A stretch of DNA of 64,000 nt from Mobula hypostoma (Eukaryota), in contig NC_086108.1 of assembly GCF_963921235.1 (NCBI RefSeq), positions 17,856,001 to 17,920,000 of the forward strand, written 5' to 3'. This document shows, one piece after another, positions 1 to 33,710 of this stretch. A model generated the notes under the pieces. The model did not search any database and was not told the origin of the DNA. It saw nothing but the letters and a program-made list of their open reading frames with translations. Every line of letters begins with the position of its first letter. The stretch's first letter is position 1. The position numbers and the translations under genes are program-made.

Positions 1-3000
1 TTAGGTTAACTTCCCACATGATTCTGAGATGTCTGAAAGTTGTTTCATGCCACTGCAGTGTAAGACAAAAAAGTTGTTTTCTCAGTGCATACAAAGCTTT
101 GACAATACAAATAGTATACATTTCAATTTTACACCAAAGTACTTACAGCAAACCTAATGGAAACACCTTAGGTTAACTTCCCACATGATTCTGAGATGTC
201 TGAAAGTTGTTTCATGCCACTGCAGTGTAAGACAAAAAAGTTGTTTTCTCAGTGCATACAATGCTTTGACAATACAAATAGTATACATTTCAATTTTACA
301 CCAAAGTACTTACTGCAAACCTAATGGAAACACCTTAGGTTAACTTCCCACATGATTCTGAGATGTCTGAAAGTTGTTTCATGCCACTGCAGTGTAAGAC
401 AAAAAAGTTGTTTTCTCAGTGCATACAATGCTTTGACAATACAAATAGTATACATTTCAATTTTACACCAAAGTACTTACAGCAAACCTAATGGAAACAC
501 CTTAGGTTAACTTCCCACATGATTCTGAGATGTCTGAAAGTTGTTTCATGCCACTGCAGTGTAAGACAAAAAAGTTGTTTTCTCAGTGCATACAATGCTT
601 TGACAATACAAATAGTATACATTTCAATTTTACACCAAAGTACTTACTACAAACCTAATGGAAACACCTTAGGTTAACTTCCCACATGATTCTGAGATGT
701 CTGAAAGTTGTTTCATGCCACTGCAGTGTAAGACAAAAAAGTTGTTTTCTCAGTGCATACAATGCTTTGACAATACAACTAGTATACATATCAATTTTAC
801 ACCAAAGAACTTACAGCAAACCTAATGGAAACACCTTAGGTTAACTTCCCACATGATTCTGAGATGTCTGAAAGTTGTTTCATGCCACTGCAGTGTAAGA
901 CAAAAAAGTTGTTTTCTCAGTGCATACAATGCTTTGACAATACAAATAGTATACATTTCAATTTTACCCCAAAGTACTTACAGCAAACCTAATGGAAACA
1001 CCTTAGGTTAACTTCCCACATGATTCTGAGATGTCTGAAAGTTGTTTCATGCCACTGCAGTGTAAGACAAAAAAGTTGTTTTCTCAGTGCATACAATGCT
1101 TTGACAATACAACTAGTATACATTTCAATTTTACACCAAAGTACTTACTGCAAACCTAATGGAAACACCTTAGGTTAACTTCCCACATGATTCTGAGATG
1201 TCTGAAAGTTGTTTCATGCCACTGCAGTGTAAGACAAAAAAGTTGTTTTCTCAGTGCATACAAAACTTTGACAATACAACTAGTATACATTTCAATTTTA
1301 CCCCAAAGTACTTACAGCAAACCTAATGGAAACACCTTAGGTTAACTTCCCACATGATTCTGAGATGTCTGAAAGTTGTTTCATGCCACTGCAGTGTAAG
1401 ACAAAAAAGTTGTTTTCTCAGTGCATACAATGCTTTGAAAATACAACTAGTATACATTTCAATTTTACACCAAAGTATTTACCGCAAATCTGATGGAAAC
1501 ACCTTAGGTTAACTTCCCACATGATTCTGAGATGCCTGAAAGTTGTTTCATGCCACTGCAGTGTAAGACAAAAAAGTTGTTTTCTCAGTGCATACAATGC
1601 TTTGACAATACAAATAGTATACATTTCAATTTTACACCAAAGTACTTAGAGCAAACCTAATGGAAACACCTTAGGTTAACTTCCCACATGATTCTGAGAT
1701 GTCTGAAAGTTGTTTCATGGCAGTGCAGTGTAAGACAAAAAAGTTGTTTTCTCAGTGCATACAATGCTTTGACAATACAAATACTATGCATTTCAATTTT
1801 ACCCCAAAGTAGTTAAAGCAAACCTAATGGAAACACCTTAGGTTAACTTCCCACATGATTCTGAGATGTCTGAAAGTTGTTTCATGCCACTGCAGTGTAA
1901 GACAAAAAAGTTGTTTTCTCAGTGCATACAATGCTTTGACAATACAAATAGTATACATTTCAATTTTACACCAAAGTACTTACGCAAACCTAATGGAAAC
2001 ACCTTAGGTTAACTTCCCACATGATTCTGAGATGTCTGAAAGTTGTTTCATGCCACTGCAGTGTAAGACAAAAAAGTTGTTTTCTCAGTGCATACAATGC
2101 TTTGACAATACAAATAGTATACATTTCAATTTTACACCAAAGTACTTACAGCAAACCTAATGGAAACACCTTAGGTTAACTTCCCACATGATTCTGAGAT
2201 GTCTGAAAGTTGTTTCATGCCACTGCAGTGTAAGACAAAAAAGTTGTTTTCTCAGTGCATACAATGCTTTGACAATACAAATAGTATACATTTCAATTTT
2301 ACCCCAAAGTACTTACAGCAAACCTAATGGAAACACCTTAGGTTAACTTCCCACATGATTCTGAGATGTCTGAAAGTTGTTTCATGCCACTGCAGTGTAA
2401 GACAAAAAAGTTGTTTTCTCAGTGCATACAATGCTTTGACAATACAAATAGTATACATTTCAATTTTACACCAAAGTACTTACAGCAAACCTAATGGAAA
2501 CACCTTAGGTTAACTTCCCACATGATTCTGAGATGTCTGAAAGTTGTTTCATGCCAATACAGTGTAAGACAAAAAAGTTGTTTTCTCAGTGCATACAATG
2601 CTTTGACAATACAAATAGTATATATTTCAATTTTTCCCCAAAGTACTTACAGCAAACCTAATGGAAACACCTTAGATTAACTTCCCACATGATTCTGAGA
2701 TGTCTGAAAGTTGTTTCATGCCACTGCAGTGTAAGACAAAAAAGTTGTTTTCTCAGTGCATACAATGCTTTGACAATACAAATAGTATACATTTCAATTT
2801 TACACCAAAGTACTTACAGCAAACCTAATGGAAACACCTTAGGTTAACTTCCCACATGATTCTGAGATGTCTGAAAGTTGTTTCATGCCACTGCAGTGTA
2901 AGACAAAAAAGTTGTTTTCTCAGTGCATACAATGCTTTGACAATACAAATAGTATACATTTCAATTTTACACCAAAGTACTTACAGCAAACCTAATGGAA

Positions 3001-6000
3001 ACACCTTAGGTTAACTTCCCACATGATTCTGAGATGTCTGAAAGTTGTTTCATGCCACTGCAGTGTAAGACAAAAAAGTTGTTTTCTCAGTGCATACAAT
3101 GCTTTGACAATACAAATAGTATACATTTCAATTTTACACCAAAGTACTTACTGCAAACCTAATGGAAACACCTTAGGTTAACTTCCCACATGATTCTGAG
3201 ATGTCTGAAAGTTGTTTCATGCCACTGCAGTGTAAGACAAAAAAGTTGTTTTCTCAGTGCATAGAAAGCTTTGACAATACAAATAGTATACATTTCAATT
3301 TTACACCAAAGTACTTACAGCAAACCTAATGGAAACACCTTAGGTTAACTTCCCACATGATTCTGAGATGTCTGAAAGTTGTTTCATGCCACTGCAGTGT
3401 AAGACAAAAAAGTTGTTTTCTCAGTGCATACAATGCTTTGACAATACAAATAGTATACATTTCAATTTTGCCCCAAAGTACTTACTGCAAACCTAATGGA
3501 AACATCTTAGGTTAACTTCCCACATGCTTCTGAGATGTCTGAAAGTTGTTTCATGCCACTGCAGTGTAAGACAAAAAAGTTGTTTTCTCAGTGCATACAA
3601 TGCTTTGACAATACAAATAGTATACATTTCAATTTTACACCAAAGTACTTACAGCAAACCTAATGGAAACACCTTAGGTTAACTTCCCACATGATTCTGA
3701 GATGTCTGAAAGTTGTTTCATGCCACTGCAGTGTAAGACAAAAAAGTTGTTTTCTCAGTGCATACAATGCTTTGACAATACAAATAGTATACATTTCAAT
3801 TTTACACCAAAGTACTTACTGCAAACCTAATGGAAACACCTTAGGTTAACTTCCCACATGATTCTGAGATGTCTGAAAGTTGTTTCATGCCACTGCAGTG
3901 TAAGACAAAAAAGTTGTTTTCTCAGTGCATACAATGCTTTGACAATACAAATAGTATACATTTCAATTTTACACCAAAGTACTTACTGCAAACCTAATGG
4001 AAACACCTTAGGTTAACTTCCCACATGATTCTGAGATGTCTGAAAGTTGTTTCATGGCAGTGCAGTGTAAGACAAAAAAGTTTGTTTTCTCAGTGCATAC
4101 AATGCTTTGACAATACAAATAGTATATATTTCAATTTTACCCCAAAGTACTTACAGCAAACCTAATGGAAACACCTTAGGTTAACTTCCCACATGATTCT
4201 GAGATGTCTGAAAGTTGTTTCATGCCACTGCAGTGTAAGACAAAAAAGGTTGTTTTCTCAGTGCATACAATGCTTTGACAATACAACTAGTATACATTTC
4301 AATTTTACACCAAAGTACTTACTGCAAACCTAATGGAAACACCTTAGGTTAACTTCCCACATGATTCTGAGATGTCTGAAAGTTGTTTCATGCCACTGCA
4401 GTGTAAGACAAAAAAGTTGTTTTCTCAGTGCATAGAAAGCTTTGACAATACAAATAGTATACATTTCAATTTTACACCAAAGTACTTACAGCAAACCTAA
4501 TGGAAACACCTTAGGTTAACTTCCCACATGATTCTGAGATGTCTGAAAGTTGTTTCATGCCACTGCAGTGTAAGACAAAAAAGTTGTTTTCTCAGTGCAT
4601 ACAATGCTTTGACAATACAAATAGTATACATTTCAATTTTACCCCAAAGTACTTACAGCAAACCTAATGGAAACACCTTAGGTTAACTTCCCACATGATT
4701 CTGAGATGTCTGAAAGTTGTTTCATGCCACTGCAGTGTAAGACAAAAAAGTTGTTTTCTCAGTGCATACAATGCTTTGACAATACAAATAGTATACATTT
4801 CAATTTTACACCAAAGTACTTACAGCAAACCTAATGGAAACACCTTAGGTTAACTTCCCACATGATTCTGAGATGTCTGAAAGTTGTTTCATGCCACTGC
4901 AGTGTAAGACAAAAAAGTTGTTTTCTCAGTGCATACAAAGCTTTGACAATACAAATAGTATAATTTCAATTTTTCCCCAAAGTACTTTCAGCAAACCTAA
5001 TGGAAACACCTTATGTTAACTTCCCAGATGATTCTGAGTTGTCTGAAAGTTGTTTCATGCCACTGCAGTGTAAGACAAAAAAGTTGTTTTCTCAGTGCAT
5101 ACAATGCTTTGACAATACAAATAGTATACATTTCAATTTTACACCAAAGTACTTACAGCAAACCTAATGGAAACACCTTAGGTTAACTTCCCACATGATT
5201 CTGAGATGTCTGAAAGTTGTTTCATGCCACTGCAGTGTAAGACAAAAAAGTTGTTTTCTCAGTGCATACAATGCTTTGACAATACAAATAGTATACATTT
5301 CAATTTTACACCAAAGTACTTACAGCAAACCTAATGGAAACACCTTAGGTTAACTTCCCACATGATTCTGAGATGTCTGAAAGTTGTTTCATGCCACTGC
5401 AGTGTAAGACAAAAAAGTTGTTTTCTCAGTGCATACAATGCTTTGACAATACAAATAGTATACATTTCAATTTTACCCCAAAGTACTTACAGCAAACCTA
5501 ATGGAAACACCTTAGGTTAACTTCCCACATGATTCTGAGATGTCTGAAAGTTGTTTCATGCCACTGCAGTGTAAGACAAAAAAGTTGTTTTCTCAGTGCA
5601 TACAATGCTTTGACAATACAAATAGTATACATTTCAATTTTACACCAAAGTACTTACAGCAAACCTAATGGAAACACCTTAGGTTAACTTCCCACATGAT
5701 TCTGAGATGTCTGAAAGTTGTTTCATGCCACTGCAGTGTAAGACAAAAAAGTTGTTTTCTCAGTGCATACAATGCTTTGACAATACAAATAGTATACATT
5801 TCAATTTTACACCAAAGTACTTACAGCAAACCTAATGGAAACACCTTAGGTTAACTTCCCACATGATTCTGAGATGTCTGAAAGTTGTTTCATGCCACTG
5901 CAGTGTAAGACAAAAAAGTTGTTTTCTCAGTGCATACAATGCTTTGACAATACAAATAGTATACATTTCAATTTTACACCAAAGTACTTACAGCAAACCT

Positions 6001-9000
6001 AATGGAAACACCTTAGGTTAACTTCCCACATGATTCTGAGATGTCTGAAAGTTGTTTCATGCCACTGCAGTGTAAGACAAAAAAGTTGTTTTCTCAGTGC
6101 ATACAATGCTTTGACAATACAAATAGTATACATTTCAATTTTACACCAAAGTACTTACAGCAAACCTAATGGAAACACCTTAGGTTAACTTCCCACATGA
6201 TTCTGAGATGTCTGAAAGTTGTTTCATGCCACTGCAGTGTAAGACAAAAAAGTTGTTTTCTCAGTGCATACAATGCTTTGACAATACAAATAGTATACAT
6301 TTCAATTTTACACCAAAGTACTTACTACTAACCTAATGGAAACACCTTAGGTTAACTTCCCACATGGTTCTGAGATGACTGAAAGTTGTTTCATGCCACT
6401 GCAGTGTAAGACAAAAAAGTTGTTTTCTCAGTGCATACAATGCTTTGACAATACAAATAGTATACATTTCAATTTTACACCAAAGTACTTACAGCAAACC
6501 TAATGGAAACACCTTAGGTTAACTTCCCACATGATTCTGAGATGTCTGAAAGTTGTTTCATGCCACTGCAGTGTAAGACAAAAAAGTTGTTTTCTCAGTG
6601 CATACAATGCTTTGACAATACAAATAGTATACATTTCAATTTTACACCAAAGTACTTACTGCAAACCTAATGGAAACACCTTAGGTTAACTTCCCACATG
6701 ATTCTGAGATGTCTGAAAGTTGTTTCATGCCACTGCAGTGTAAGACAAAAAAGTTGTTTTCTCAGTGCATACAATGCTTTGACAATACAAATAGTATACA
6801 TTTCAATTTTACACCAAAGTACTTACAGCAAACCTAATGGAAACACCTTAGGTTAACTTCCCACATGATTCTGAGATGTCTGAAAGTTGTTTCATGCCAC
6901 TGCAGTGTAAGACAAAAAAGTTGTTTTCTCAGTGCATACAATGCTTTGACAATACAATAGTATACATTTCATTTTTACAGCAAAGTACTTACTGCAAACC
7001 TAATGAAAACACCTTAGGTTAACTTCCCACATGATTCTGAGATGTCTGAAAGTTGTTTCATGCCACTGCAGTGTAAGACAAAAAAGTTGTTTTCTCAGTG
7101 CATACAATGCTTTGACAATACAAATAGTATACATTTCAATTTTACACCAAAGTACTTACTACAAACCTAATGGAAACAGCTTAGGTTAACTTCCCACATG
7201 GTTCTGAGATGTCTGAAAGTTGTTTCATGCCACTGCAGTGTAAGACAAAAAAGTTGTTTTCTCAGTGCATACAATGCTTTGACAATACAAATAGTATACA
7301 TTTCAATTTTACCCCAAAGTACTTACAGCAAACCTAATGGAAACACCTTAGGTTAACTTCCCACATGATTCTGAGATGTCTGAAAGTTGTTTCATGCCAC
7401 TGCAGTGTAAGACAAAAAAGTTGTTTTCTCAGTGCATACAATGCTTTGACAATACAATAGTATACATTTCAATTTTACACCAAAGTACTTACTGCAAACC
7501 TAATGGAAACACCTTAGGTTAACTTCCCACATGATTCTGAGATGTCTGAAAGTTGTTTCATGCCACTGCAGTGTAAGACAAAAAAGTTGTTTTCTCAGTG
7601 CATACAAAGCTTTGACAATACAAATAGTATACATTTCAATTTTACCCCAAAGTACTTACAGCAAACCTAATGGAAACACCTTAGGTTAACTTCCCACATG
7701 ATTCTGAGATGTCTGAAAGTTGTTTCATGCCACTGCAGTGTAAGACAAAAAAGTTGTTTTCTCAGTGCATACAATGCTTTGACAATACAAATAGTATACA
7801 TTTCAATTTTACACCAAAGTACTTACAGCAAACCTAATGGAAACACCTTAGGTTAACTTCCCACATGATTCTGAGATGTCTGAAAGTTGTTTCATGCCAC
7901 TGCAGTGTAAGACAAAAAAGTTGTTTTCTCAGTGCATACAATGCTTTGACAATACAATAGTATACATTTCAATTTTACACCAAAGTACTTACTGCAAACC
8001 TAATGGAAACACCTTAGGTTAACTTCCCACATGATTCTGAGATGTCTGAAAGTTGTTTCATGCCACTGCAGTGTAAGACAAAAAAGTTGTTTTCTCAGTG
8101 CATACAATGCTTTGACAATACAAATAGTATACATTTCAATTTTGCCCCAAAGTACTTACAGTAAACCTAATGGAAACAACTTCGATTAACTTCCAACATG
8201 ATTCTGAGATGTCTGAAAGTTGTTTCATGCCACTGCAGTGTAAGACAAAACAGTTGTTTTCTCAGTGCATAGAAAGCTTTGACAATACAAATAGTATACA
8301 TTTCAATTTTACAGCGAAATACTTACTGCAAACCTAACGGAAACACCTGAGGTTAACTTCCCACATGATTCTGAGAGGTCTGAAAGTTGTTTCATGCCAC
8401 TGCAGTGTAAGACAAAAAAGTTGTTTTCTCAGTGCATACAATGCTTTGACAATACAAATAGTATACATTTCAATTTTACACCAAAGTACTTACAGCAAAC
8501 CTAATGGAAACACCTTAGGTTAACTTCCCACATGATTCTGAGATGTCTGAATGTTGTTTCATGCCACTGCAGTGTAAGACAAAAAAGTTGTTTTCTCAGT
8601 GCATACAATGCTTTAACAATACAAATAGTATATATTTCAATTTTGCCCCAAAGTACTTACAGTAAACCTAATGGAAACACCTTAGATTAACTTCCCACAT
8701 GATTCTGAGATGTCTGAAAGTTGTTTCATGCCACTGCAGTGTAAGACAAAAAAGTTGTTTTCTCAGTGCATACAATGCTTTAACAATACAAATAGCATAC
8801 ATTTCAATTTTACACCAAAGTACTTACAGCAAACCTAATGGAAACACCTTAGGTTAACTTCCCACATGATTCTGAGATGTCTGAAAGTTGTTTCATGACA
8901 CTGCAGTGTAAGACAAAAAAGTTGTTTTCTCAGTGCATACAATGCTTTGACAATACAAATAGTATACATTTCAATTTTACCCCAAAGTACTTACAGCAAA

Positions 9001-12000
9001 CCTAATGGAAACACCTTAGGTTAACTTCCCACATGATTCTGAGATGTCTGAAAGTTGTTTCATGCCACTGCAGTGTAAGACAAAAAAGTTGTTTTCTCAG
9101 TGCATACAATGCTTTGACAATACAAATAGTATACATTTCAATTTTACCCCAAAGTACTTACTGCAAACCTAATGGAAACACCTTAGGTTAACTTCCCACA
9201 TGCTTCTGAGATGTCTGAAAGTTGTTTCATGCCACTGCAGTGTAAGACAAAAAAGTTGTTTTCTCAGTGCATAGAAAGCTTTGACAATACAAATAGTATA
9301 CATTTCAATTTTACAGCAAAGTACTTACAGCAAACCTAATGGAAACACCTTAGGTTAACTTCCCACATGATTCTGAGATGTCTGAAAGTTGTTTCATGCC
9401 TGTGCAGTGTAAGACAAAAAAGTTGTTTTCTCAGTGCATACAATGCTTTGACAATACAAATAGTATACATTTCAATTTTACACCAAAGTACTTACTGCAA
9501 ACCTAATGGAAACACCTTAGGTTAACTTCCCACATGATTCTGAGATGTCTGAAAGTTGTTACATGCCACTGCAGTGTAAGACAAAAAAGTTGTTTTCTCA
9601 GTGCATAGAAAGCTTTGACAATACAAATGGTATACATTTCAATTTTACACCAAAGTACTTACCGCAAATCTAATGGAAACACCTTAGGTTAACTTCCCAC
9701 ATGATTCTGAGATGCCTGAAAGTTGTTTCATGGCAGTGCAGTGTAAGACAAAAAAGTTTGTTTTCTCAGTGCATACAATGCTTTGACAATACAAATACTA
9801 TGCATTTGAATTTTACACCAAAGTACTTACTGCAAACCTAATGGAAACACCTTAGGTTAACTTCCCACATGATTCTGAGATGTCTGAAAGTTGTTTCATG
9901 CCACTGCAGTGTAAGACAAAAAAGTTGTTTTCTCAGTGCATACAATGCTTTGACAATACAAATAGTATACATTTCAATTTTACACCAAAGTACTTACAGC
10001 AAACCTAATGGAAACACCTTAGGTTAACTTCCCACATGATTCTGAGATGTCTGAAAGTTGTTTCATGCCACTGCAGTGTAAGACAAAAAAGTTGTTTTCT
10101 CAGTGCATACAATGCTTTGACAATACAAATAGTATACATTTCAATTTTACACCAAAGTACTTACTACAAACCTAATGGAAACACCTTAGGTTAACTTCCC
10201 ACATGGTTCTGAGATGACTGAAAGCTGGTTCATGCCACTGCAGTGTAAGACAAAAAGGTTGTTTTCTCAGTGCATACAATGCTTTGAAAATACAACTAGT
10301 ATACATTTCAATTTTACACCAAAGTACTTACCGCAAATCTAATGGAAACACCTTAGGTTAACTTCCCACATGATTCTGAGATGCCTGAAAGTTGTTTCAT
10401 GCCACTGCAGTGTAAGACAAAAAAGTTGTTTTCTCAGTGCATACAATGCTTTGACAATACAAATAGTATACATTTCAATTTTACCCCAAAGTACTTACAG
10501 CAAACTTAATGGAAACACCTTAGGTTAACTTCCCACATGATTCTGAGATGTCTGAAAGTTGTTTCATGCCACTGCAGTGTAAGACAAAAAAGTTGTTTTC
10601 TCAGTGCATACAATGCTTTGACAATACAAATAGTATACATTTCAATTTTACACCAAAGTACTTACTGCAAACCTAATGGAAACACCTTAGGTTAACTTCC
10701 CACATGATTCTGAGATGTCTGAAAGTTGTTTCATGCCACTGCAGTGTAAGACAAAAAAGTTGTTTTCTCAGTGCATACAAAGCTTTGACAATACAAGTGG
10801 TATACATTTCAATTTTACACCAAAGTACTTACAGCAAACCTAATGGAAACACCTTAGGTTAACTTCCCACATGATTCTGAGATGTCTGAAAGTTGTTTCA
10901 TGCCACTGCAGTGTAAGACAAAAAAGTTGTTTTCTCAGTGCATACAATGCTTTGACAATACAAATAGTATACATTTCAAGTTTACCCCAAAGTACTTACA
11001 GCAAACTTAATGGAAACACCTTAGGTTAACTTCCCACATGATTCTGAGATGTCTGAAAGTTGTTTCATGCCACTGCAGTGTAAGATAAAACAGTTGTTTT
11101 CTCAGTGCATACAATGCTTTGACAATACAAATAGTATACATTTCAATTTTACACCAAAGTACTTACAGCAAACCTAATGGAAACACCTTAGGTTAACTTC
11201 CCACATGATTCTGAGATGTCTGAAAGTTGTTTCATGCCACTGCAGTGTAAGACAAAAAAGTTGTTTTCTCAGTGCATACAATGCTTTGACAATACAAATA
11301 GTATACATTTCAATTTTACCCCAAAGTACTTACAGCAAACTTAATGGAAACACCTTAGGTTAACTTCCCACATGATTCTGAGATGTCTGAAAGTTGTTTC
11401 ATGCCACTGCAGTGTAAGACAAAAAAGTTGTTTTCTCAGTGCATACAATGCTTTGACAATACAATAGTATACATTTCAATTTTACACCAAAGTACTTACA
11501 GCAAACCTAATGGAAACACCTTAGGTTAACTTCCCACATGATTCTGAGATGTCTGAAAGTTGTTTCATGCCACTGCAGTGTAAGACAAAAAAGTTGTTTT
11601 CTCAGTGCATACAATGCTTTGACAATACAAATAGTATACATTTCAATTTTACCCCAAAGTACTTACAGCAAACCTAATGGAAACACCTTAGGTTAACTTC
11701 CCACATGATTCTGAGATGTCTAAAGTTGTTTCATGCCACTGCAGTGTAAGACAAAAAAGTTGTTTTCTCAGTGCATACAATGCTTTGACAATACAAATAG
11801 TATACATTTCAATTTTACACCAAAGTACTTACAGCAAACCTAATGGAAACACCTTAGGTTAACTTCCCACATGATTCTGAGATGTCTGAAAGTTGTTTCA
11901 TGCCACTGCAGTGTAAGACAAAAAAGTTGTTTTCTCAGTGCATACAATGCTTTGACAATACAAATAGTATACATTTCAATTTTACACCAAAGTACTTACA

Positions 12001-21000: not shown

Positions 21001-24000
21001 TACCCCAAAGTACTTACAGCAAACCTAATGGAAACACCTTAGGTTAACTTCCCACATGATTCTGAGATGTCTGAAAGTTGTTTCATGCCACTGCAGTGTA
21101 AGACAAAAAAGTTGTTTTCTCAGTGCATAGAAAGCTTTGACAATACAAATGGTATACATTTCAATTTTACACCAAAGTACTTACAGCAAACCTAATGGAA
21201 ACACCTTAGGTTAACTTCCCACATGATTCTGAGATGTCTGAAAGTTGTTTCATGCCACTGCAGTGTAAGACAAAAAAGTTGTTTTCTCAGTGCATACAAA
21301 GCTTTGACAATACAAATAGTATACATTTCAATTTTACACCAAAGTACTTACTGCAAACCTAATGGAAACACCTTAGGTTAACTTCCCACATGATTCTGAG
21401 ATGTCTGAAAGTTGTTTCATGCCACTGCAGTGTAAGACAAAAAAGTTGTTTTCTCAGTGCATACAATGCTTTGACAATACAAATAGTATACATTTCAATT
21501 TTACCCCAAAGTACTTACAGCAAACCTAATGGAAACACCTTAGGTTAACTTCCCACATGATTCTGAGATGTCTGAAAGTTGTTTCATGCCTGTGCAGTGT
21601 AAGACAAAAAAGTTGTTTTCTCAGTGCATACAATGCTTTGACAATACAAATAGTATACATTTCAATTTTACACCAAAGTACTTACTGCAAACCTAATGGA
21701 AACACCTTAGGTTAACTTCCCACATGATTCTGAGATGTCTGAAAGTTGTTTCATGCCTGTGCAGTGTAAGACAAAAAAGTTGTTTTCTCAGTGCATACAA
21801 TGCTTTGACAATACAAATAGTATACATTTCAATTTTACACCAAAGTACTTACAGCAAACCTAATGGAAACACCTTAGGTTAACTTCCCACATGATTCTGA
21901 GATGTCTGAAAGTTGTTTCATGCCACTGCAGTGTAAGACAAAAAAGTTGTTTTCTCAGTGCATACAATGCTTTGACAATACAAGTAGTATACATTTCAAT
22001 TTTACACCAAAGTACTTACTGCAAACCTAATGGAAACACCTTAGGTTAACTTCCCACATGATTCTGAGATGTCTGAAAGTTGTTTCATGCCACTGCAGTG
22101 TAAGACAAAAAAGTTGTTTTCTCAGTGCATAGAATGCTTTGACAATACAAATAGTATACATTTCAATTTTACACCAAAGTACTTACAGCAAACCTAATGG
22201 AAACACCTTAGGTTAACTTCCCACATGATTCTGAGATGTCTGAAAGTTGTTTCATGCCTGTGCAGTGTAAGACAAAAAAGTTGTTTTCTCAGTGCATACA
22301 ATGCTTTGACAATACAAGTAGTATACATTTCAATTTTACACCAAAGTACTTACTGCAAACCTAATGGAAACACCTTAGGTTAACTTCCCACATGATTCTG
22401 AGATGTCTGAAAGTTGTTTCATGCCACTGCAGTGTAAGACAAAAAAGTTGTTTTCTCAGTGCATACAATGCTTTGACAATACAAATAGTATATATTTCAA
22501 TTTTACCCCAAAGTACTTACAGCAAACCTAATGGAAACACCTTAGGTTAACTTCCCACATGATTCTGAGATGTCTGAAAGTTGTTTCATGCCACTGCAGT
22601 GTAAGACAAAAAAGTTGTTTTCTCAGTGCATACAATGCTTTGACAATACAAATAGTATACATTTCAATTTTACACCAAAGTACTTACTGCAAACCTAATG
22701 GAAACACCTTAGGTTAACTTCCCACATGATTCTGAGATGTCTGAAAGTTGTTTCATGCCACTGCAGTGTAAGACAAAAAAGTTGTTTTCTCAGTGCATAC
22801 AATGCTTTGACAATACAAATGGTATACATTTCAATTTTACAGCGAAGTACTTACAGCAAACCTAATGGAAACACCTGAGGTTAACTTCCCACATGATTCT
22901 GAGATGTCTGAAAGTTGTTTCATGCCTGTGCAGTGTAAGACAAAAAAGTTGTTTTCTCAGTGCATACAATGCTTTGACAATACAAATAGTATACATTTCA
23001 ATTTTACACCAAAGTACTTACAGCAAACCTAATGGAAACACCTTAGGTTAACTTCCCACATGATTCTGAGATGTCTGAAAGTTGTTTCATGCCACTGCAG
23101 TGTAAGACAAAAAAGTTGTTTTCTCAGTGCATACAATGCTTTGACAATACAAATAGTATACATTTCAATTTTACCCCAAAGTACTTACTGCAAACCTAAT
23201 GGAAACACCTTAGGTTAACTTCCCACATGATTCTGAGATGTCTGAATGTTGTTTCATGCCACTGCAGTGTAAGACAAAAAAGTTGTTTTCTCAGTGCATA
23301 CAATGCTTTAACAATACAAATAGAATACATTTCAATTTTACACCAAAGTACTTACAGCAAACCTAATGGAAACACCTTAGGTTAACTTCCCACATGATTC
23401 TGAGATGTCTGAAAGTTGTTTCATGCCTGTGCAGTGTAAGACAAAAAAGTTGTTTTCTCAGTGCATACAATGCTTTGACAATACAAGTAGTATACATTTC
23501 AATTTTACACCAAAGTACTTACTGCAAACCTAATGGAAACACCTTAGGTTAACTTCCCACATGATTCTGAGATGTCTGAAAGTTGTTTCATGCCACTGCA
23601 GTGTAAGACAAAAAAGTTGTTTTCTCAGTGCATACAATGCTTTGACAATACAAATAGTATATATTTCAATTTTACCCCAAAGTACTTACAGCAAACCTAA
23701 TGGAAACACCTTATGTTAACTTCCCACATGATTCTGAGATGTCTGAAAGTTGTTTCATGCCACTGCAGTGTAAGACAAAAAAGTTGTTTTCTCAGTGCAT
23801 ACAATGCTTTGACAATACAAATAGTATACATTTCAATTTTACACCAAAGTACTTACTGCAAACCTAATGGAAACACCTTAGGTTAACTTCCCACATGATT
23901 CTGAGATGTCTGAAAGTTGTTTCATGCCACTGCAGTGTAAGACAAAAAAGTTGTTTTCTCAGTGCATACAATGCTTTGACAATACAAGTGGTATACATTT

Positions 24001-25436
24001 CAATTTTACACCAAAGTACTTACAGCAAACCTAATGGAAACACCTTAGGTTAACTTCCCACATGATTCTGAGATGTCTGAAAGTTGTTTCATGCCACTGC
24101 AGTGTAAGACAAAAAAGTTGTTTTCTCAGTGCATACAATGCTTTGACAATACAAATAGTATATATTTCAATTTTACACCAAAGTACTTACTGCAAACCTA
24201 ATGGAAACACCTTAGGTTAACTTCCCACATGATTCTGAGATGTCTGAAAGTTGTTTCATGCCACTGCAGTGTAAGACAAAAAAGTTGTTTTCTCAGTGCA
24301 TACAAAGCTTTGACAATACAAATAGTATACATTTCAATTTTACCCCAAAGTACTTACAGCAAACCTAATGGAAACACCTTAGGTTAACTTCCCACATGAT
24401 TCTGAGATGTCTGAAAGTTGTTTCATGCCACTGCAGTGTAAGACAAAAAAGTTGTTTTCTCAGTGCATACAATGCTTTGACAATACAAGTAGTATACATT
24501 TCAATTTTACACCAAAGTACTTACTGCAAACCTAATGGAAACACCTTAGGTTAACTTCCCACATGATTCTGAGATGTCTGAAAGTTGTTTCATGCCTGTG
24601 CAGTGTAAGACAAAAAAGTTGTTTTCTCAGTGCATACAATGCTTTGACAATACAAATAGTATACATTTCAATTTTACACCAAAGTACTTACAGCAAACCT
24701 AATGGAAACACCTTAGGTTAACTTCCCACATGATTCTGAGATGTCTGAAAGTTGTTTCATGCCTGTGCAGTGGAAGACAAAAAAGTTGTTTTCTCAGTGC
24801 ATACAGTGCTTTGACAATAGAAGTAGTATACATTTCAATTTTACACCAAAGTACTTACTGCAAACCTAATGGAAACACCTTAGGTTAACTTCCCACATGA
24901 TTCTGAGATGTCTGAAAGTTGTTTCATGCCACTGCAGTGTAAGACAAAAAAGTTGTTTTCTCAGTGCATACAATGCTTTGACAATACAAATAGTATATAT
25001 TTCAATTTTACCCCAAAGTACTTACAGTAAACCTAATGGAAACAGCTCAGGTTAACTTCCCACATGATTCTGAGATGTCTGAAAGTTGTTTCATGATTGT
25101 GCAGTGTAAGACAAAAATGTTGTTTTCTCACTGCATACAATGCTTTGAAAATACAACTAGTATACATTTCAATTTTACACCAAAGTACTTACTGCAAACC
25201 TAATGGAAACACCTTAGGTTAACTTCCCACATGATTCTGAGATGTCTGAAAGTTGTTTCATGCCACTGCAGTGTAAGACAAAAAAGTTGTTTTCTCAGTG
25301 CATACAAAACTTTGACAATACAACTAGTATACATTTCAATTTTACCCCAAAGTACTTTCAGCAAACGTAATGGAAACACCTTATGTTAACTTCCCAGATG
25401 ATTCTGAGTTGTCTGAAAGTTGTTTCATGCCACTGC
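1..25436. repeat. Homogeneous 167-bp tandem satellite array, ~152 monomers in window, continuing beyond the left edge; putative centromeric satellite
   Basis: TTAGGTTAACTTCCCACATG at 1 recurs at 168 and at 1671 (10 x 167). Monomers differ by only a few SNPs or 1-bp indels. AT-rich, no CpG in the consensus, one HpaI/PstI/ScaI site per typical unit. The last unit switches to the divergent type at CACTGC|TCATCAAG (~25436). Centromeric role is inferred. Confidence 0.97.
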
Positions 25437-28400
25437 TCATCAAGAGAAAAAAATTGATTTGTCAGTGCATACAGTGCAGTGGCATTGAAAGAAGTTTACA
25501 TTTCAATTTTACTCAAAGGTACTGACTGCAAAGCTGATGGAAACATTTTAAGATTACTCCCCACATCATTCTGAGTTGTTCAGGACCTGTTACATCACTC
25601 AGCTCCTCAAGATAAAAAAGTTGATTTCTCAGTGCATTCAGTGCTTTGGCTTTGAAAGAAGTATGTATTTCAATTTTACTCAATAGTACTGAATGCAAAC
25701 CTCATGGAAACATCTTAACATAACTCCCCACATGAGTCTGAGTTGTTCAGAACCTGTTACATCACTCATCTCCTGAAGATAAAGAAGTTCTTTTCTCAGT
25801 GCATACAGTGCTTTGGCATTAAAAGATGTATGTATATCAAGTTTACTCAAAGGTACTGACTGAAACCCTTATGGAAACATATTGATGTAAATCCCCACAT
25901 GATTCTGAGTTGTCTGGGAGCTATTATATCACTTTGCTATTCAAGATAAAAAAGTTGATTTCTCAGTGCATACTGTGCTTTGGCATTGAAAGAACTATGT
26001 ATTTCAATTTTACTCACTAGTACTGAATGCAAACCTCATGGAAACATCTTAATATAACTCCCCACATGATTCTGAGATGTTCAGGACCTGTAACATCACT
26101 CAGCTCCTCAATATAAAAAAGTAGATTTCTCAGTGCCTACAGTGTAGTGGCATTGAAAGAAGTATACATTTCGATTTTACTCAAAAGTATTGAGTGCAAA
26201 GCTGATGGAAACATCTTAACATAACTCCCCACATGATTCAGAGTTGGTCAGGACCAGTTACATCATTCAGCTCCTCAAGGTAAACAAGTTGTTTTCTCAG
26301 TGCATGCAGTGCTTTGGCATTAAAAGAAATAGGTATTACAATTTTACTCAAAGGTTCTGACTGAAAACCTTATGGAAACATCTTAATATAATTCTGCACA
26401 TGATTCTGAGTTGTCTGGGAGCTGTTATATCACTTTGCTATTCAGGATAAAAAAAGTTGATTTCGCAGTGCATACAGTGCTTTGTCAATAAGTAGTATAC
26501 ATTTCAAATTTACACTAAAGTACTTACGGCAAACCTAATGGAAACACCTGAGACTAACTTCCCACATGAATATGAATAGTTTGAAAGTTGTTTTATGCCT
26601 CTGCTCATCAAGAGAGAAAAGTTGATTTCTCAGTGCATACAGGGCAGTGGCATTGAAAGAAGTATACATTTCAATTTTACTCAAAGGTACTGGCTGAAAA
26701 CCTGATGGAAATATCTTAACATAACTCCCCACATGATTCTGAGTTGTTCAGCACCTGTTACATCAGTCAGCTCCTCAAGATAAAAAAGTTGATTTGTCAG
26801 TGCATACAGTGCTTTGGAATTAAAAGAAGTATGTATATCAAGTTTACTCAAAGGTACTGACTGAAACCCTTATGGAAACATCTTAACATAACTCCCCACA
26901 TGATTCTGAGTTGTCTGGGAGCTATTATATCACTTTGCTATTCAAGATAAAAAAAGTTGATTTCTCAGTGCATACAGTGCTTTGGCATTGAAATAACTAT
27001 GTACTTCAATTTTACTCACCAGTACTGAATGCAAACCTGATGGAAACATCTTAATATAACTCCCCACATGATTCTGAGATGATCAGGACCTGTAACATCA
27101 CTCAGCTCCTCAATATAAAAAAGTTGATTTCTCAGTGCATACAGTGTAGTGGCATTGAAAGAAGTATACATTTCAATTTTACTCAAAAGTACTGACTGCA
27201 AAGCTGATGGAAACATCTTAACATAACTCCCCACATGATTCAGAGTTGTTCAGGACCAGTTACATCATTCAGCTCCTCAAGGTAAACAAGCTGATTTCTC
27301 AGTGCATGCAGTGCTTTGGCATTAAAAGAAGTAGGTATTACAATTTTACTCAAAGGTACTGACTGAAAACCTTATGGAAACATCTTAATATAAATCTGCA
27401 CATGATTCTGAGTTGACTGGGAGCTGTTATATGACTTTGCTATTCAGGATAAAAAAGTTTATTTCTCAGTGCATTCCGTGCTTTGTCAATAAGTTTTATA
27501 CATTTCAATTTTACACTGAAGTATTTATGGCAAACCTAATGGAAACACCTTAGTTTAACGTCCCACATGATTATGAGTAGTTTGAAAGTTGTTTCATGAC
27601 TCTGCTCATGAAGAGAAAAAAGTTGATTTCTCAGTGCATACAGTGCATTGGCATTAAAAGAACTATGTATTTCAATTTTACTCGAAGGTACTGACTGCAA
27701 CCCTTATGGAAACATCTTAATATAAATCCCCACATGATTTTGAGTTGTCTGGGAGCTGTTATATCACTTTGCAATTCAGGATAAAAAAGGTTGATTTCTC
27801 AGTGCATACAGTGCTTTGCCATTGAAAGAACTATGTATTTCATTTTTACTCACTAGTACTGAATGCAAACCTCATGGAAACATCTTAATATAACTAGCCA
27901 CATGATTCTGAGATGTTCAGGACCTGTAACATCACTCAGCTCCTCAAGATAAAAAAGTTGATTTCTCAGTGCATACAGTGCTTTGGCATTAAAAGAAGTA
28001 TCTATTTCAATTGTACTCAATAGTACTGAATGCAAACCTCATGGAAACATCTTAATATAACTCCCCACATGATACTGAGATTTTCAGGACCTGTTACTTC
28101 ACTCAGCTCCTCAAGATAAAAAAGTTGATTTCTCAGTACATACAGTGCAGTGGCATTGAACGAAGTATACGTTTCAATTTTACTCAAAGGTACTGACTGC
28201 AAACCTTATGGAAACATCTTAACATAACTCCCCACATGTTTCTGAGTTGTTCAGGACCTGTTACATCACTCAGCTCCTCAAGGTAAAAAAGTTGATTTCT
28301 CAGTGCATAAAGTGCATTGGCATTAAAAGAAGTATGTATTTCAATTTTACTCAAAGGTACTGACTGCAAACCTTATGGAAACATCTTAATATAAATCCCC

Positions 28401-30190
28401 ACATGATTCAGAGTTGTCTGGGAGCTGTTATATCACTTTGCTATTCAGGATAAAAAAGTTGTTTTCTCAGTGCATACAGTGCTTTTTCAATAAGTAGTCT
28501 ACATTTCAATTTTACACTAAAGTACTTAAGGCAAACCTAATGGAAACACCTTAGGTTAACGTCCCACATGATTATGAGTGGTTTGAAGGTTGTTTCATGC
28601 CTCTGCTCATAAAGAGAAAAAAGTTGATTTCTCAGTGCGTACAGTGCAGTAGTATTGAAAGAAGTATACATTTCAATTTTACTCCAAGGTACTGACTGAA
28701 AACCTGATGGAAACATCTTAACATAACTCCCCACATGATTCTGAGATGTTCAGGACCTGTTACATCACTCAGCTTCTCAAGATAAAAAAGTTGATTTCTC
28801 AGTGCATACAGTGCAGTGGAATTGAAAGAAGTATACATTTCAATTTTACTCCAAGGTACTGACTGCAAAACTGATGGAAACATCTTAACATAACTCCCCA
28901 CATGATTGTGAGATGTTCAAGACCTGTTACATCACTCAGCTCCTCAAGATAAAAAAGTTGATTTCTCAGTGCATACAGTGCAGTGGAATTGAAAGAAGTA
29001 AGTGCATTGGCATTAATAGAAGTATGTATTTCAATTTTACTCAAAGGTACTGACTGCAAACCTTATGGAAACATCTTAATATAAATCCCCACATGATTCT
29101 GAGTTGTCTAGGAGCTGTTATATCACTTTGTTATTTAAGATGAAAATGTTGATTTCTCAGTGCATACTGTGCATTGGCATTGAAAGAAGTATGTATTTCA
29201 ATTTTTCTCAATACTACTGAATGCAAACCTGATGGACAAATCTTAATATTACTCCCCACATGATTCTGAGATGTTCAGGACCTGTTACATCACTCAGCTC
29301 CTCAAGATAAAAAAGTTGATTTCTCAGTGCATACAGTGCTTTGGCATTAAAAGAAGTAGGTATATCAAGTTTACTCAAAGGTACTGACTGAAAACCTTAT
29401 GGAAACATCTTAATATAACTCCCCACATGATTCTGAGTTGTCTGGGAGCTGTTATATCACTTTGCTATTCAAGATGAAAAAGTTGATTTCTCACTGCATA
29501 CAGTGCTTTGGCTTTAATAGAAGTATGTATTTCAATTTTACTCAGTAGTACTGACTGCAAACCTCATGGAAACATCTTAATATAACTCCCCACATGATTC
29601 TGAGATGTTCAGGACCTGTAACATCACTCAGCTCCTCAAGATAAAAATGTTGATTTCTCAGTGCATACAGTGCAGTGGCATTGAAAGAAGTATACATTTC
29701 AATTTTACTCAAAGGTACTGACTGCAAAGCTGATGGAAACATTTTAACATAACTCCCCACATCATTCTGAGTTGGTCAGGACCTGTTACATCACTCAGCT
29801 CCTCAAGATAAAAAAGTTGATTTCTCAGTGCATAAAGTGCATTGGCATTAAAAGAAGTATGTATTTCAATTTTACTCAAAGGTACTGACTGCAAACCTTA
29901 TGGAAACATCTTAATATAAATCCCCACATGATTTTGAGTTGTCTGGGAGCTGTTATATCACTTTGCTATTCAGGATAAAAAAGTTAATTTCTCAGTGCAT
30001 ACAGTGCATTGGCATTGAAAGAAGTATGTATTTCAATTTTACTCAACAGTACTGAATGCAAACCTCATGGAAACATCTTAATATAACTCACCACATGATT
30101 CTGAGATGTTCAGGACCTGTTACATCACTCAGCTCCTCAAGAGAAAAAAGTTGATTTCTCAGTACATACAGTGCAGTGGCATTGAAAGAA
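25437..30190. repeat. Diverged layer 2 of the same 167-bp satellite, with three monomer subtypes and a partial ~1002-bp (6-mer) higher-order period
   Basis: Same register and shared motifs (TGGAAACA, CCCACATGATTCTGAG, TTTCTCAGTGCATACA). Subtype A has CAGGACCTGTTACATCACTCAGCTCC, B has GTCTGGGAGCTGTTATATCACTTTGC, and C resembles the young monomer (~26550, ~27550, ~28551). Confidence 0.93.
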
Positions 30191-33100
30191 GTATAAGAAG
30201 CATAGATTTCAATTTTGCTCAAAAGTACTGAGCGGAAACCTCATAGAAACATCTGAACTTAACTCCCCAAGTGACTCTGAGCTGTTTGGGACCTGTTTTA
30301 TCACTGAGGTATTCAAGATAATAAAGTTGATTTCTCAGTGCATACAGTACTTTGACATTAAAAGAAGTATTCATTGCAATTTTACTCACAAGTTTTTTCT
30401 GCAAATTTTATGGAAACATCTGAACTTAACTCACCATATGATTCTGAGCTGTTTGAGACCTGTTTTATCACTGAGCTGTTCAAGATAAAAAAGTTGATTT
30501 CTCAGGGCAAACATTGCTTTGAAATTAAAAGAAGTATACATTGCAATCTTACTCACAGTTACTTGCTGCAAACCCAATGGAAACGTCTGAACTTAAACCC
30601 CTGCATGATTCTGAGTTGTTCGAGTCCTGTTTTATCACTGAGCTGTTAAACATAAAAAAAGTTGATTTCTCAGTGCATACAGTGCTTTGACATTAAAAAA
30701 AAAGTATACATTGCAATTTTACTCACTGCTACTTGCTGCAAACCTGATGGAAACATCTGAACTGAACTCCCCATATTATTCTGAATTGTTTTTGACCTGT
30801 TATATCACTGAGCTCTTCAAGACAAAAAAGTTGATTTTTCAGGCCATACAGTGCTTTGACATTAAAAGAAGTATACATTTCATCTTTACTCAAAAGTACT
30901 GACTGCAAACCTCATAGAAACATCTGAACTTAACTCCTGAAATGATTCTGAGCTTATTGAGGTCTGCTTTATCACTGAGGTATTCAAGATAAAAAAGTTG
31001 ATTTATCAGGGCAAACAGTGCTTTGGAATTAAAGGGAGTATACATTGCAATTTTACTCACAGCTACTTGCTGCAAACCCAATGGAAACATCTGAACTTAA
31101 CTCCCTGCATGATTCTGAGTTGTTCGAGTCCTGTTTTATCACTGAGCTCTTCAAGATAAAAAAATTGGTCTCTCAGTGCATACAACTGCTCTGACATTAT
31201 AAGAAGCATAGATTTCAATTTTGCTCAAAAGTACTCAGTGGAAACCTCATGGAAACATCTGAACTTAACTCCAAAAATGATTCTGAGCTGTTTGGGACCT
31301 GTTTTATCACTTAGGTATTCAAGGTAATAAAGTTGTTTTTGACCTGTTATATCACTGAGCTCTTCAAGATAGAAAAGTTGATTTCTCAGTGCATGCAGTG
31401 CTTTGACATTAAAAGAAGTATTCATTGCAATTTTACTCATAAGTTCTTTCTGCAAATCTGATGGAAACATCTGAACTTAACTCCCCATATGATTCTGAGC
31501 TGTTTAAGACCTGTTTTATCACTGAGGTCTTGAAGATAAAGAAGTTGATTTCTCAGTGCATACAGTGCTTTGACATTATAAGAAGTATAGATTTCAATTT
31601 TTCTCAAAAGTACTGAGTGCAAACCTGATGGAAAGATCTGAAGGTAACTCCCCATATGATTCTGAGTTGTTTTTGACCTGTTTTATCCTGAGCTCTTCAA
31701 GATAAAAACGTTGATCTCTCAGGGCATACAGTGCTTTGACGTTAAAAGAAGTATACATTTCAACTTTCTCAAAAGTACTGAGTGCAAACCTGATGGAAAC
31801 ATCTGAACTTTACTCCCCATATGATTCTGAGTTGTTTTTGACCTGTTTTATCACTGAGCTCTTCAAGACAAAAAAGTTTATTTTTCAGGCCATACAGTGC
31901 TTAGTCATTAAAAGAAGTATACATTTCAACTTTACTCAAAAGTACTGACTGCAAACCTCAGAGAAACATCTGAACTTAACTCCCCAAGTGACTCTGAGCT
32001 GTTTGAGGCCTGCTTTATCACTGAGGTATTCAAGATAAAAAAGTTGATTTCTCAGGGCAAACAGTGCTTTGACATTAAAAGAAGTATTCATTGCAATTTT
32101 ACTCACAAGTTTTTTCTGCAAATCTGATGGAAACATCTGAACTTAACTCCCCATATGATTCTGAGCTGTTTGAGACCTGTTTTATCACTGAGGTCTTGAA
32201 GATAAAGAAGTTGATTTCTCAGTGCATACAGTGCTTTGACATTAAAAGAAGTATACTTTTCAACTTTACTCAAAAGTACTGACTGTAAACCTCATGAAAA
32301 CATCTGAACATAACTCCCCAAATGATTCTGAGTTGTTTGAGACCTGTTTTATCACTGATTCTTCAGAATAAAAAAAGTTGATTTCTCTGTGCATACAGTG
32401 CCTTGACAATAAAAGAAGTATACACTTCAATTCTACTCAAAAGTACTAACTACAAACCTCATGGAAACATCTAAACTTAACTCCCTGCATGATTCTGATT
32501 TGTTCGAGTCCTGTTTCATCACTGAGCTGTTCAAGATAAAAAAGTTTATTTCTCAGTGCATACTCTGCTTTTACATTATAAGAAGTATAGATTTCAATTT
32601 TGCTCAACAGTACTGACTGCAAACCTCATGGAAACATCTGAACTTATCTCCCCAAATGATTCTGATTTGTTTGAGATCTGTTTTATCACTGAGCTCTTCA
32701 AGATAAGAAAGTTGATATCTCGGGGCATTCAGTGGTTTGACACTAAAAGAAGTATACATTGCAATTTTACTCACAGCTGCTTGCTGCAAACCTGATGGAA
32801 ACATTTGAACTGAACCCCCCCCCCATATAATTCTGAGTTGTTTTTGACCTGTTATATCACTGAGCTGTTCAAGATAGAAAAGTTGATTTCGCAGTGCATG
32901 CAGTGCTTTGACATTAAAAGAAGTATACATTTCAACTTTACTCAAATGTACTGACCGTAAACCTCATGGAAACATCTGAACTTATTTCCCTACATGATTC
33001 TGAGTTGTTTGAGTCCTGTTTTATCACTGAGTTCTTCAAGATAAAAAAAAGTTGGTTTCTCGGTGCATACACTGCTTTGACATTATAAGAAGTATAGATT

Positions 33101-33330
33101 TCAATTTTACTCAAAAGTACTGAGTGCAAACCTGATGGAAACATCTGAACTTAACTCCCCATGTGATTCTGAGTTGTTTTTTTTACCTGTTTTATTACCG
33201 AGCCGCTCAAGATAAAAAAGTTGATTTCTCAGTGCATACAGTATATAGTCATTATAAGAAGTATATATTTCAATTTTACTCTAAACTACTGAGTGCAATC
33301 TGATGGAAACATCGGAACTTAACTCTCCAT
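30191..33330. repeat. Diverged layer 3 of the 167-bp satellite, the outermost ~19 monomers
   Basis: Diagnostic GAAACATCTGAACTTAACTCC and CCTGTTTTATCACTGAG replace the layer-2 motifs from ~30200. The array ends mid-monomer at ~33330 against an L1 fragment. Confidence 0.92.
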
Positions 33331-33710
33331 AATTAAAATGGATATTACTAGAAGGAACAAAATTATTTAAGTCAAAAAATCTATGAATGTGAAAGCAAAT
33401 TCTTAATTTATGTTTAATAATAGGATTAATATCTTGTCTACGAATCTTAGCAAACAAAAAGAGAAGAGGAACTCCCAGTAAAGAGGCCAAAGAGAACCCC
33501 TTAACTGAGTTTTCCTCCAAATCCAACCAATGAGGACATTCATGTGTGTCTGAGTAATGAATGCAAAAAGTAATATATCGAATTTTAATTTCCCAATAAT
33601 ACATTCTAAAATTTGGCAAAGCCATACCACCACCCTTTTTTAATTTCTGTAATAAAGGTTTACTTAATCTATGATTTTTGTTATTGCAAATATAAGATAT
33701 GATTATAGAA
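33331..33710 (-). mobile_element. L1/Tx1-clade LINE ORF2 internal fragment (post-RT region)
   Basis: Translates as LQKLKKGGGMALPNFRMYYW..., homologous to LQKAKKNGGLALSNFRFYYW in the L1 at 41230-41760. Confidence 0.85.

Follow-up and report, generated by a model that had tools for sequence, protein, structure and literature searches.

The window, the whole stretch of 64,000 nucleotides analysed here, opens with a tandem array of 167-bp monomers whose composition changes twice before the array stops. The question is whether this array is the edge of a centromere, and whether its layers record the expansion of a young repeat among older ones. The original prediction held that it is the centromere flank of a cartilaginous fish with layered expansion. 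The host is as supposed. Its RAG1 shows 95% identity to a cluster named Hemitrygon akajei, 82–84% to Narcine and Amblyraja and 78–80% to sharks, which places the genome as that of a myliobatiform ray. A LINE ORF tried as a taxon marker gave 13 matches, none of them named, and was uninformative. As for the array, we consider it quite probable that it is a centromere flank shaped by layered expansion and inter-chromosomal seeding.

The layered array in the window

According to TRF, a period of 167 extends over positions 1–33,331 of the window, which is free of N. From positions 157–33,303, 198 whole monomers were cut, every one on the + strand. The optimal three-way split of these monomers falls at monomers 151 and 180. 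The mean pairwise identity is 97.5% in layer A (monomers 0–150), and the pairwise identity is 84.1% in layer B (monomers 152–178) and 83.6% in layer C (monomers 180–197). The consensus identities are 76% for A–B, 80% for A–C and 90% for B–C. The main features are as follows.

1..25436, + strand: layer A, young homogeneous 167-bp monomers (TRF, 97.5% pairwise identity)
218..227, no strand: first whole copy of the perfect 10-bp palindrome CACTGCAGTG, monomer positions 62–71, which marks type A
25370..25536, + strand: junction monomer 151, A-type to 63–67, D-type at 68–77 and then B-type (site painting)
25437..30194, + strand: layer B, e-type monomers, of which the first 20 form a decayed 6-monomer (~1 kb) higher-order repeat
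26484..26614, + strand: D-type piece in layer B, ~130 bp, approximate limits
27486..27615, + strand: D-type piece in layer B, approximate limits
28487..28616, + strand: D-type piece in layer B, approximate limits
30195..33330, + strand: layer C, c-type monomers, starting with a 9-bp register slip and stopping at LINE fragments

The near-identical monomers had been noted to end at 25,436, and this is indeed the final base compatible with A. The monomers also cluster by layer as anticipated. The nearest neighbour lies within the own layer for 198 of 198 monomers, the B/C split is better than 2000 of 2000 shufflings, and in a tree of 58 monomers A is a single group at 100/100 and C at 97/97. Only hybrids with D split layer B: the decayed 6-monomer repeat of B carries D-type pieces, and as a result monomers 151, 158, 164 and 170 group with A at 100/99. 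Thus, of the claim of three sharp layers in one orientation and register, the layers and the + strand stand; B is not one group, and the register slips at three points: near 29,000 (about +24 bp, monomer length 191), at the B/C junction at ~30,195 (+9 bp, length 176) and near 31,330 (+45 bp, length 212).

Layer A reaches 27 kb to the left of the window, as far as a 200-N scaffold gap at position 17,828,448 of the contig, and contains 315 whole monomers in total. Its CpG observed/expected ratio is 0.016. No higher-order period is present in A, where the identity is flat (0.972–0.976) over lags 1–59. In layer B, the lag-6 identity is 0.888 versus 0.80–0.82 at the other lags (p 0.0002). The junction monomer 151 is an in-register crossover, and the A/B junction sits within one of the four D-type pieces of the decayed 6-mer.

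On C50, the chromosome of the window (118 Mb), just 76 kb of the array is assembled. Layer A runs into the gap, and old monomers are found on its far side. Joined across the gap, this left flank contains the e-type and lacks a c-type layer, so the symmetry is partial. The old layers of the left flank also carry inserts, two 0.8-kb copies that are 96% alike; none was seen in A on C50.

The palindrome CACTGCAGTG occurs 0.85 times per monomer in layer A and 0 times in layers B and C. Over all loci sampled, it is present in 74% of A monomers versus 0.1% of non-A monomers. By chance, a 10-bp palindrome is expected in about one of six monomers. Two origins of the A patch were considered: either a template switch perfected the palindrome, or a similar patch in a C2 subtype was the donor in a conversion. 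The fold energy of A is not unusual (z 0.06 versus shuffles). Its dyad cover has z 1.43 versus shuffles, with B and C at about 0 or below (for the dyad-rich class of non-B-forming repeats, see PMC5889037). A 10-bp WW periodicity was not seen, and peaks lie at 5.2–5.8 bp. The 17-bp CENP-B box is absent from all type consensuses, the best having 5–6 of 9 core positions. Rfam gave no match at gathering score in 24,500–64,000. A search for a transposon origin with nhmmer, using a c/g-type profile against 0.88 Mb of non-satellite DNA, found none; the best E was 0.025, near arrays.

Distribution, abundance and relatives

The 167-bp family is present on 29 of the 33 chromosome-scale contigs, and no array was found on C67, C76, C78 and C91. 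In five complete pattern lists, 207 of 208 matches lie in one cluster per contig, with a span of at most 1.6 Mb except on C9 (5.4 Mb). The array lies at a short-arm fraction of 0.37–0.49 on the seven largest chromosomes and 0.15 on C50. Arrays are terminal on nine contigs and interstitial on 20 of the 29, and the other chromosome ends carry unrelated 14-, 28-, 48- and 61-bp repeats; the family is thus not found at chromosome ends generally, as a subtelomeric satellite would be. Type A spans 22 chromosomes and also forms arrays on the small scaffolds C51, C79 and C167. No A was found in the samples from seven chromosomes, of which C36 and C73 have the f-type and C45, C59, C71, C80 and C82 the e-type. 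C51 was tried as the missing core of C50 and rejected, as 0% of its A variants have the C50-typical base at position 122.

The family has a very high copy number and is collapsed in the assembly. The summed contig depth on A is about 3.5e7 versus 8.06 on unique DNA. Depth is not copy number; the 1.4e5 copies of A (24 Mb) obtained from it are a rough floor, which halves if the unique contig represents one haplotype. The assembled monomers are estimated at 12,800–19,700. With the cores collapsed, the expectation of one large array per chromosome is borne out only roughly. Two arrays 0.3–5.4 Mb apart are present on several chromosomes, those of C1, C9, C36, C55 and C58 being oppositely oriented, and C1 has an additional A piece at 42.77 Mb next to a gap. 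The paired or opposed arrays and the extra C1 piece may be scaffolding errors, which is how we read them.

The single cluster per chromosome, its position, the association with gaps and the read abundance indirectly support the centromere flank. The same features could belong to pericentromeric heterochromatin like the mouse major satellite, with the kinetochore on a different repeat, or on retroelements, concealed by the gaps or by the stretches that separate paired arrays. The pairing of arrays on several chromosomes, the GC-rich minisatellites (15, 26 and 32 bp) between some pairs and the unassembled cores are in line with this explanation. On C50 and C62, however, the family flanks the gap on either side in a single orientation, the type next to the gaps is the youngest, and ten samples taken between paired arrays contain no repeat common to chromosomes. 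In addition, the monomer length and abundance match those of the usual centromeric repeat as outlined in PMC4053949. We therefore regard a purely pericentromeric family as unlikely, and retain the candidate centromere flank.

The relatives were compared by contigs only. For the A patch, organism A shows a depth of 13.5 million, and two runs of organism B show 2,928 and 12,881. A-like copies, present in organism B in traces, carry a T at position 63 that disrupts the palindrome. Contigs resembling layer C are present in organism B, and loose ends in both relatives, organisms B and C, read D-type. Organism B differs from the studied genome at 5 of 414 bases in one unique stretch. On the contigs of these two relatives, the older layers are common to related species and the youngest, A, is lineage-specific. 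As type A is nearly absent from close relatives, its spread over the chromosomes is likely recent and resembles that seen in primates.

Order and descent of the monomer types

Layers B and C are about equally diverged; thus, a greater age of C than of B cannot be read from the window by itself, and the order rests on other chromosomes. Type A is found on 14 of 24 gap or contig-end sides versus 5 of 27 outer edges (Fisher p 0.004), and the c-type on 0 of 24 versus 11 of 27 (Fisher p 0.0003); the edges were picked near known matches and are not independent, so these p values are indicative only. The c-type, that of layer C, is the commonest outermost type on other chromosomes. On the 5 outer edges, A stops directly at unique DNA. 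The divergence from the type consensus is 3% for A, 8% for f, 10% for D, 11% for d and e, and 14% for c. Two-sided layouts are c-D-A...A-c on C12, c-e-gap-A...A-e on C62, c...A-f on C58 and f-A...f on C90. Older types thus flank both sides of A on these four chromosomes and, across the gap, on C50, which agrees with layered expansion, although the types often differ between the sides and gaps intervene. The layers are not the simple local series of parent and daughter that layered expansion might imply. In the tree, A is nested within D, which forms layers on other chromosomes and none on C50. Depending on the chromosome, A adjoins d/D, f, e or c types in register, and its identity is higher within than between chromosomes on 17 of 19 contigs.

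The layers might instead be neighbouring subfamilies joined by rearrangement or edge invasion, with no succession of centromeres and with A as a selfish or neutral spreader. The equal divergence of B and C in the window, the four types and occasional unique DNA next to A, and inversions inside arrays on C1, C9, C21, C36 and C63 would fit such joining. We nevertheless consider it highly improbable, since the inside-out order is consistent on many chromosomes, the divergence climbs from A to c, and D-like monomers dominate in the relatives, yet D is a flank in the studied genome. An assembler chimera of similar monomers from different loci can hardly be credited as the cause of the sharp A/B boundary: the junction does lie in the most A-like piece of B, where a misjoin is easiest, but there is no N, chromosome-specific variants of the A block reach right to the junction, C62 repeats the layout of A against e, and direct A–e or A–c joints are found on C2, C55, C64, C1 and C12.

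Returning to layered expansion with seeding, we propose the following course. An ancestral c-type array would have split into two lines, e/B and d/D/f, and A would have arisen once, from D. It may have moved between non-homologous chromosomes via homologous recombination between monomers. As A derives from D and D is not a layer on C50, A was likely seeded there from another chromosome. Its probable point of entry is a D-type piece within the B repeat, the site of greatest homology (A–D identity 90%, A–B 76%). Once there, A would have been expanded and homogenised locally through the established mechanisms of unequal exchange or break-induced replication, which would have produced the chromosome-specific variants. 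Next to the young A array at the scaffold gap stand older layers, which probably represent earlier centromeric arrays displaced towards the outside, and the putative kinetochore would lie on A, mostly inside the unassembled gap.

A wider reading, to which taken as a whole we give somewhat less than even weight, is that a centromeric satellite is described for the first time in a cartilaginous fish, and that it records genome-wide centromere turnover in progress. After divergence from a relative that differs by about 1% in unique DNA, the new type, which gained the 10-bp palindrome, would have entered 22 or more of the 33 chromosomes. It would have done so by exchange in register, with ancestral-type pieces of the older arrays as docking sites, and C36 and C71 may still run on older types.

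Significance and comparison with known systems

In the literature searched, no description of the 167-bp family was found; Dfam, Repbase, GenBank nucleotide, older cytogenetics papers and bioRxiv supplements may hold one. Nor was a shark or ray centromeric repeat found there, the centromeres of these animals being placed only by Hi-C and methylation. The family marks candidate centromere positions on 29 chromosomes, points out contigs that are probably misoriented and provides targets for FISH and CENP-A. The layering, together with the difference from the relatives, opens rapid centromere turnover to testing and illustrates how a new monomer can pass from one chromosome to another. The cartilaginous fish lineage is generally held to evolve slowly. 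If the wider reading is true, primate-style layered expansion extends to chondrichthyans, which would offer a natural test of centromere drive.

The putative centromere of red stingray chromosome 4 (10.1101/2025.06.08.657570) is central on a metacentric myliobatiform chromosome and has a low 5mC frequency. It is defined by Hi-C and methylation; the main text does not contain the word 'satellite', and no description of a monomer or of layers was found. The account of medaka centromeric satellites (PMC13431155) presents, as in the ray, fish satellite subfamilies that differ by chromosome, with evidence of exchange between chromosomes. Near-identical monomers are reported there only among acrocentrics, whereas A of the ray is found on metacentric and acrocentric chromosomes. 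In the ray, the older e-type flanks appear to be commonest on acro-/subtelocentric chromosomes and d/D on large metacentrics. Haplochromine cichlids, as summarised in PMC13652916, have centromeric satellite blocks, some of opposite orientation; the inverted 15-kb elements of the cichlids were not seen in the ray, where opposite orientations mostly coincide with scaffold gaps.

The closest comparison is primate alpha satellite, for which layered expansion, suprachromosomal families and inter-array seeding are set out by Altemose et al. (10.1101/2021.07.12.452052). Unlike alpha satellite, layer A of the ray is monomeric without a higher-order period, has no CENP-B box and almost no CpG, and one type spans 22 chromosomes; no homology is claimed from the likeness. 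As in the features of alpha satellite described there, the monomer is of nucleosome scale, a young homogeneous core is separated from older flanks by a steep divergence step, monomer families are common to chromosomes, seeding from another chromosome is likely, and decayed higher-order repeats are present in the flank.

Layers of the satellite in the window and the C50 locus

Contig C50, which carries the window, accounts for 118.1 Mb of an assembly that totals 3.48 Gb and has 200 contigs. At window positions 1–33,331, a tandem repeat of period 167 was detected by TRF, and 198 whole monomers were excised. Layers A (monomers 0–150), B (152–178) and C (180–197) show mean pairwise identities of 97.5, 84.1 and 83.6%, respectively, and their consensus sequences are 76% (A–B), 80% (A–C) and 90% (B–C) identical. 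The optimal split of the monomers is at 151 and 180, the nearest neighbour lies within the own layer for 198/198 monomers, and the B/C split is better than 2000/2000 shufflings. Thus, the sharply bounded layers described in the original prediction are borne out. An IQ-TREE tree was built from 58 monomers (11 of the 151 of layer A and all 47 of B and C). The monomers cluster by layer as had been expected, A and C with supports of 100/100 and 97/97, except that layer B takes two changes because monomers 151, 158, 164 and 170 group with A.

The first 20 monomers of layer B form a decayed 6-mer (lag-6 identity 0.888 versus 0.80–0.82, p 0.0002); a higher-order period was looked for in layer A, and none was found. 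The CpG observed/expected ratio is 0.016 in layer A versus 0.40 in the flank. Each B 6-mer unit contains one piece of ~130 bp with the states of another monomer type, D, at the diagnostic sites that distinguish the types. Type D shares 90% identity with A and 85% with B. Monomer 151, located at the A/B junction, is A-type up to position 63–67, D-type at 68–77 and B-type thereafter, and the junction falls inside a D-type piece of the B 6-mer. Type A would have seeded the C50 array at such a piece. No more than one chromosome can have given rise to A. C50 is an unlikely source, as the D pieces on it belong to the d kind and the nearest relatives of A lie elsewhere.

Type A extends leftward to a 200-N gap (C50 17,828,448–17,828,647) and comprises 315 whole monomers (52.6 kb) on C50. 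Beyond the gap, 78 e-type monomers interrupted by inserts continue in the same orientation as far as 17,813,223. Two 0.8-kb inserts in this left old layer (17,817,869–17,818,661 and 17,822,205–17,823,002) are 96% alike, and are likely to be a single insertion duplicated along with a monomer block. The 167-bp family is absent from 20 samples over 15.0–17.806 Mb and five samples over 17.92–18.1 Mb of C50; therefore the assembled array is 76 kb, in the order e, gap, A, B (mostly e), c.

To the right of the satellite, the following features are located (window positions):
33,331–35,500, minus strand, LINE fragments
35,700–38,350, 20-bp minisatellite, degenerate and strongly G-skewed
40,670–44,770, minus strand, decayed non-LTR retrotransposon
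47,500–48,000; 54,200–56,500; 59,670–60,800, decayed non-LTR retrotransposons

The LINE fragments are split at ~34,495–35,405 by a GC-rich repetitive element that itself contains repeats of 67 and 20 bp, and joints skipping this element are seen in reads. Reverse transcriptase matches were found in four of the eight window stretches tested, and by eye the decayed retrotransposons resemble L1/Tx1, CR1 and Penelope-like types.

Monomer types and their order across chromosomes

The chromosome-scale set mapped consists of at least 33 contigs of at least 9.6 Mb (3,405 Mb altogether). The family was detected on 29/33, with no match on C67, C76, C78 and C91; the expectation of one large array per chromosome holds in outline. 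A single cluster per contig accounts for 207/208 matches in five pattern searches with full lists, and three further searches gave at least 100 matches each. On the seven largest chromosomes the cluster is median, with a short-arm fraction of 0.37–0.49; it is subterminal on several middle chromosomes (C50: 0.15) and terminal on nine. Unrelated GC-rich repeats are present at other chromosome ends; a GC-rich 14/28-bp subtelomeric satellite family is common to starts or ends of C67, C75, C76, C78, C80 and C91. The last 10 kb of C80 contain e-type monomers in blocks of 15 spaced by ~135 bp, so that this contig terminates in a higher-order repeat with a unit of 2.6 kb. The 167-bp array is real, and very probably centromeric. 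A transposon origin was tested with an nhmmer profile of c- and g-type monomers against 0.88 Mb of non-satellite DNA, and the result was negative.

Monomers cluster into A, a d/D/f group, an e group (with most of B), c (with C) and g. In a FastTree tree of 163 monomers across types, A is nested within d/D, beside D monomers of C5 and C1; A is descended from D. The four hybrids 151, 158, 164 and 170 cluster with d. Layer C clusters with C40 c monomers and the c monomers of C22, C9 and C21 are basal on the d/D side, so that c is not a single clade. Identities to the closest type consensus (5,556 monomers) are 0.967 for A, 0.917 for f, 0.904 for D, 0.888 for d, 0.887 for e and 0.856 for c.

Type A occupies 14/24 gap or contig-end sides versus 5/27 outer edges, and type c 0/24 versus 11/27, in a sample drawn close to known matches, with 10 of the 24 sides entered by hand and a few outer edges being inserts within arrays. 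The centromere function, the temporal order of the types and the means of their expansion are inferred. Layers mirrored about the core had also been predicted. Older types flank A on both sides on C12, C62, C58 and C90. The two sides of the C50 gap are connected by scaffolding only. Sharp, in-register direct joints are A–e on C50 and C2, A–c on C1 and A–f on C40 and C90; C9, C12 and C21 show A–d/D joints in their type strings. Type A is present on 22 chromosome-scale contigs and on the small scaffolds C51, C79 and C167. Its copies on different chromosomes are 93–96% alike, and the majority variants are chromosome-specific. One A clade on 22 chromosomes beside four different neighbours implies that A moved between chromosomes.

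Three features count against a tidy layered picture: A directly adjoins unique DNA at five edges, seven chromosomes lack A in the samples taken, and paired arrays are oppositely oriented on five chromosomes, next to a gap where checked (C1 and C9). None of ten samples from between paired arrays contains the family. At C9 92.615–97.991 Mb and C1 104.572–105.819 Mb, the gap comes first, then the A array, with older layers inward. Flipping either stretch would bring A beside the partner array in one orientation, and both are probable scaffolding inversions. A 5-kb A array next to a gap at C1 42,764,000–42,769,500, 62 Mb away from the main C1 cluster, is either ectopic or the result of contig misplacement. 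Homogeneous arrays of f-type (C36 82.8–84.0 Mb, 93–96%) and e-type (C71 61.05–61.12 Mb, 95%) show no A in samples; A may not have reached these two chromosomes so far, or the assembly may lack their A cores. At C2 159,595,001–159,605,000, a distinct subtype beside A has a patch at positions 63–72 like the A-diagnostic patch, and is a possible donor of it.

Abundance of type A in reads

RAG1 on C45 is 95% identical to the Hemitrygon akajei cluster, 82–84% to Narcine and Amblyraja, 78–80% to sharks and at most 73% to bony vertebrates; by these identities the host is a myliobatiform ray. The A stretch, whole or partial, was found in 20 runs of eight studies (four organism codes and one metagenome), the best of which may be the source sample. 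Over a unique stretch, organism A, taken as the species itself, is identical at 434/434 bases (depth 8.06), and organism B, a relative, differs at 5/414. In run X2 (organism A), the summed depth over three A monomers is ~3.5 × 10^7 per monomer position. Dividing this first by 8.06 and then by 31, which is the maximum overcount due to overlapping 31-mers, yields ~1.4 × 10^5 copies or 24 Mb, half of this if the unique contig represents one haplotype; as depth is not equal to copy number, only the order of magnitude is meaningful. Assembled monomers number ~12,800–19,700 by four scalings, and 6,000–7,700 from two patterns biased to the window.

The depth at the A patch, the stretch marking type A, is 13.5 million in X2 versus 2,928 in X5 and 12,881 in X6, two runs of organism B. 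In organism B and a second relative, C, the depth collapses over this patch, the remaining monomer in B still being in the millions, and the loose contig ends are D-type. Therefore, among the three organisms compared, A is abundant only in Mobula hypostoma reads, with a trace in B.

Comparison with known satellites

No description of the family was found in the literature searched, which comprised freely readable papers and the main texts of preprints. The red stingray preprint locates a centromere by Hi-C and methylation, the word "satellite" being absent from its main text (10.1101/2025.06.08.657570), "centromer" appears nowhere in the text of the mobulid preprint, and no centromeric repeat is mentioned in the relevant passages on the whale shark and the grey reef shark. 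A CENP-B box was not found in the family; its assignment to alpha satellite was set aside, and no homology is claimed. The dyad excess, as presented in PMC5889037, is weak here. Similarity gradients have been reported elsewhere among animals and plants, PMC13431155 describes exchange among medaka acrocentrics, and haplochromine cichlid centromeres have inverted centroids (PMC13652916). What gives the 167-bp array its value is the taxon, together with a spread of type A that is recent and species-specific. The family would work in the manner of primate alpha satellite under the layered-expansion model, inter-array seeding included (10.1101/2021.07.12.452052).
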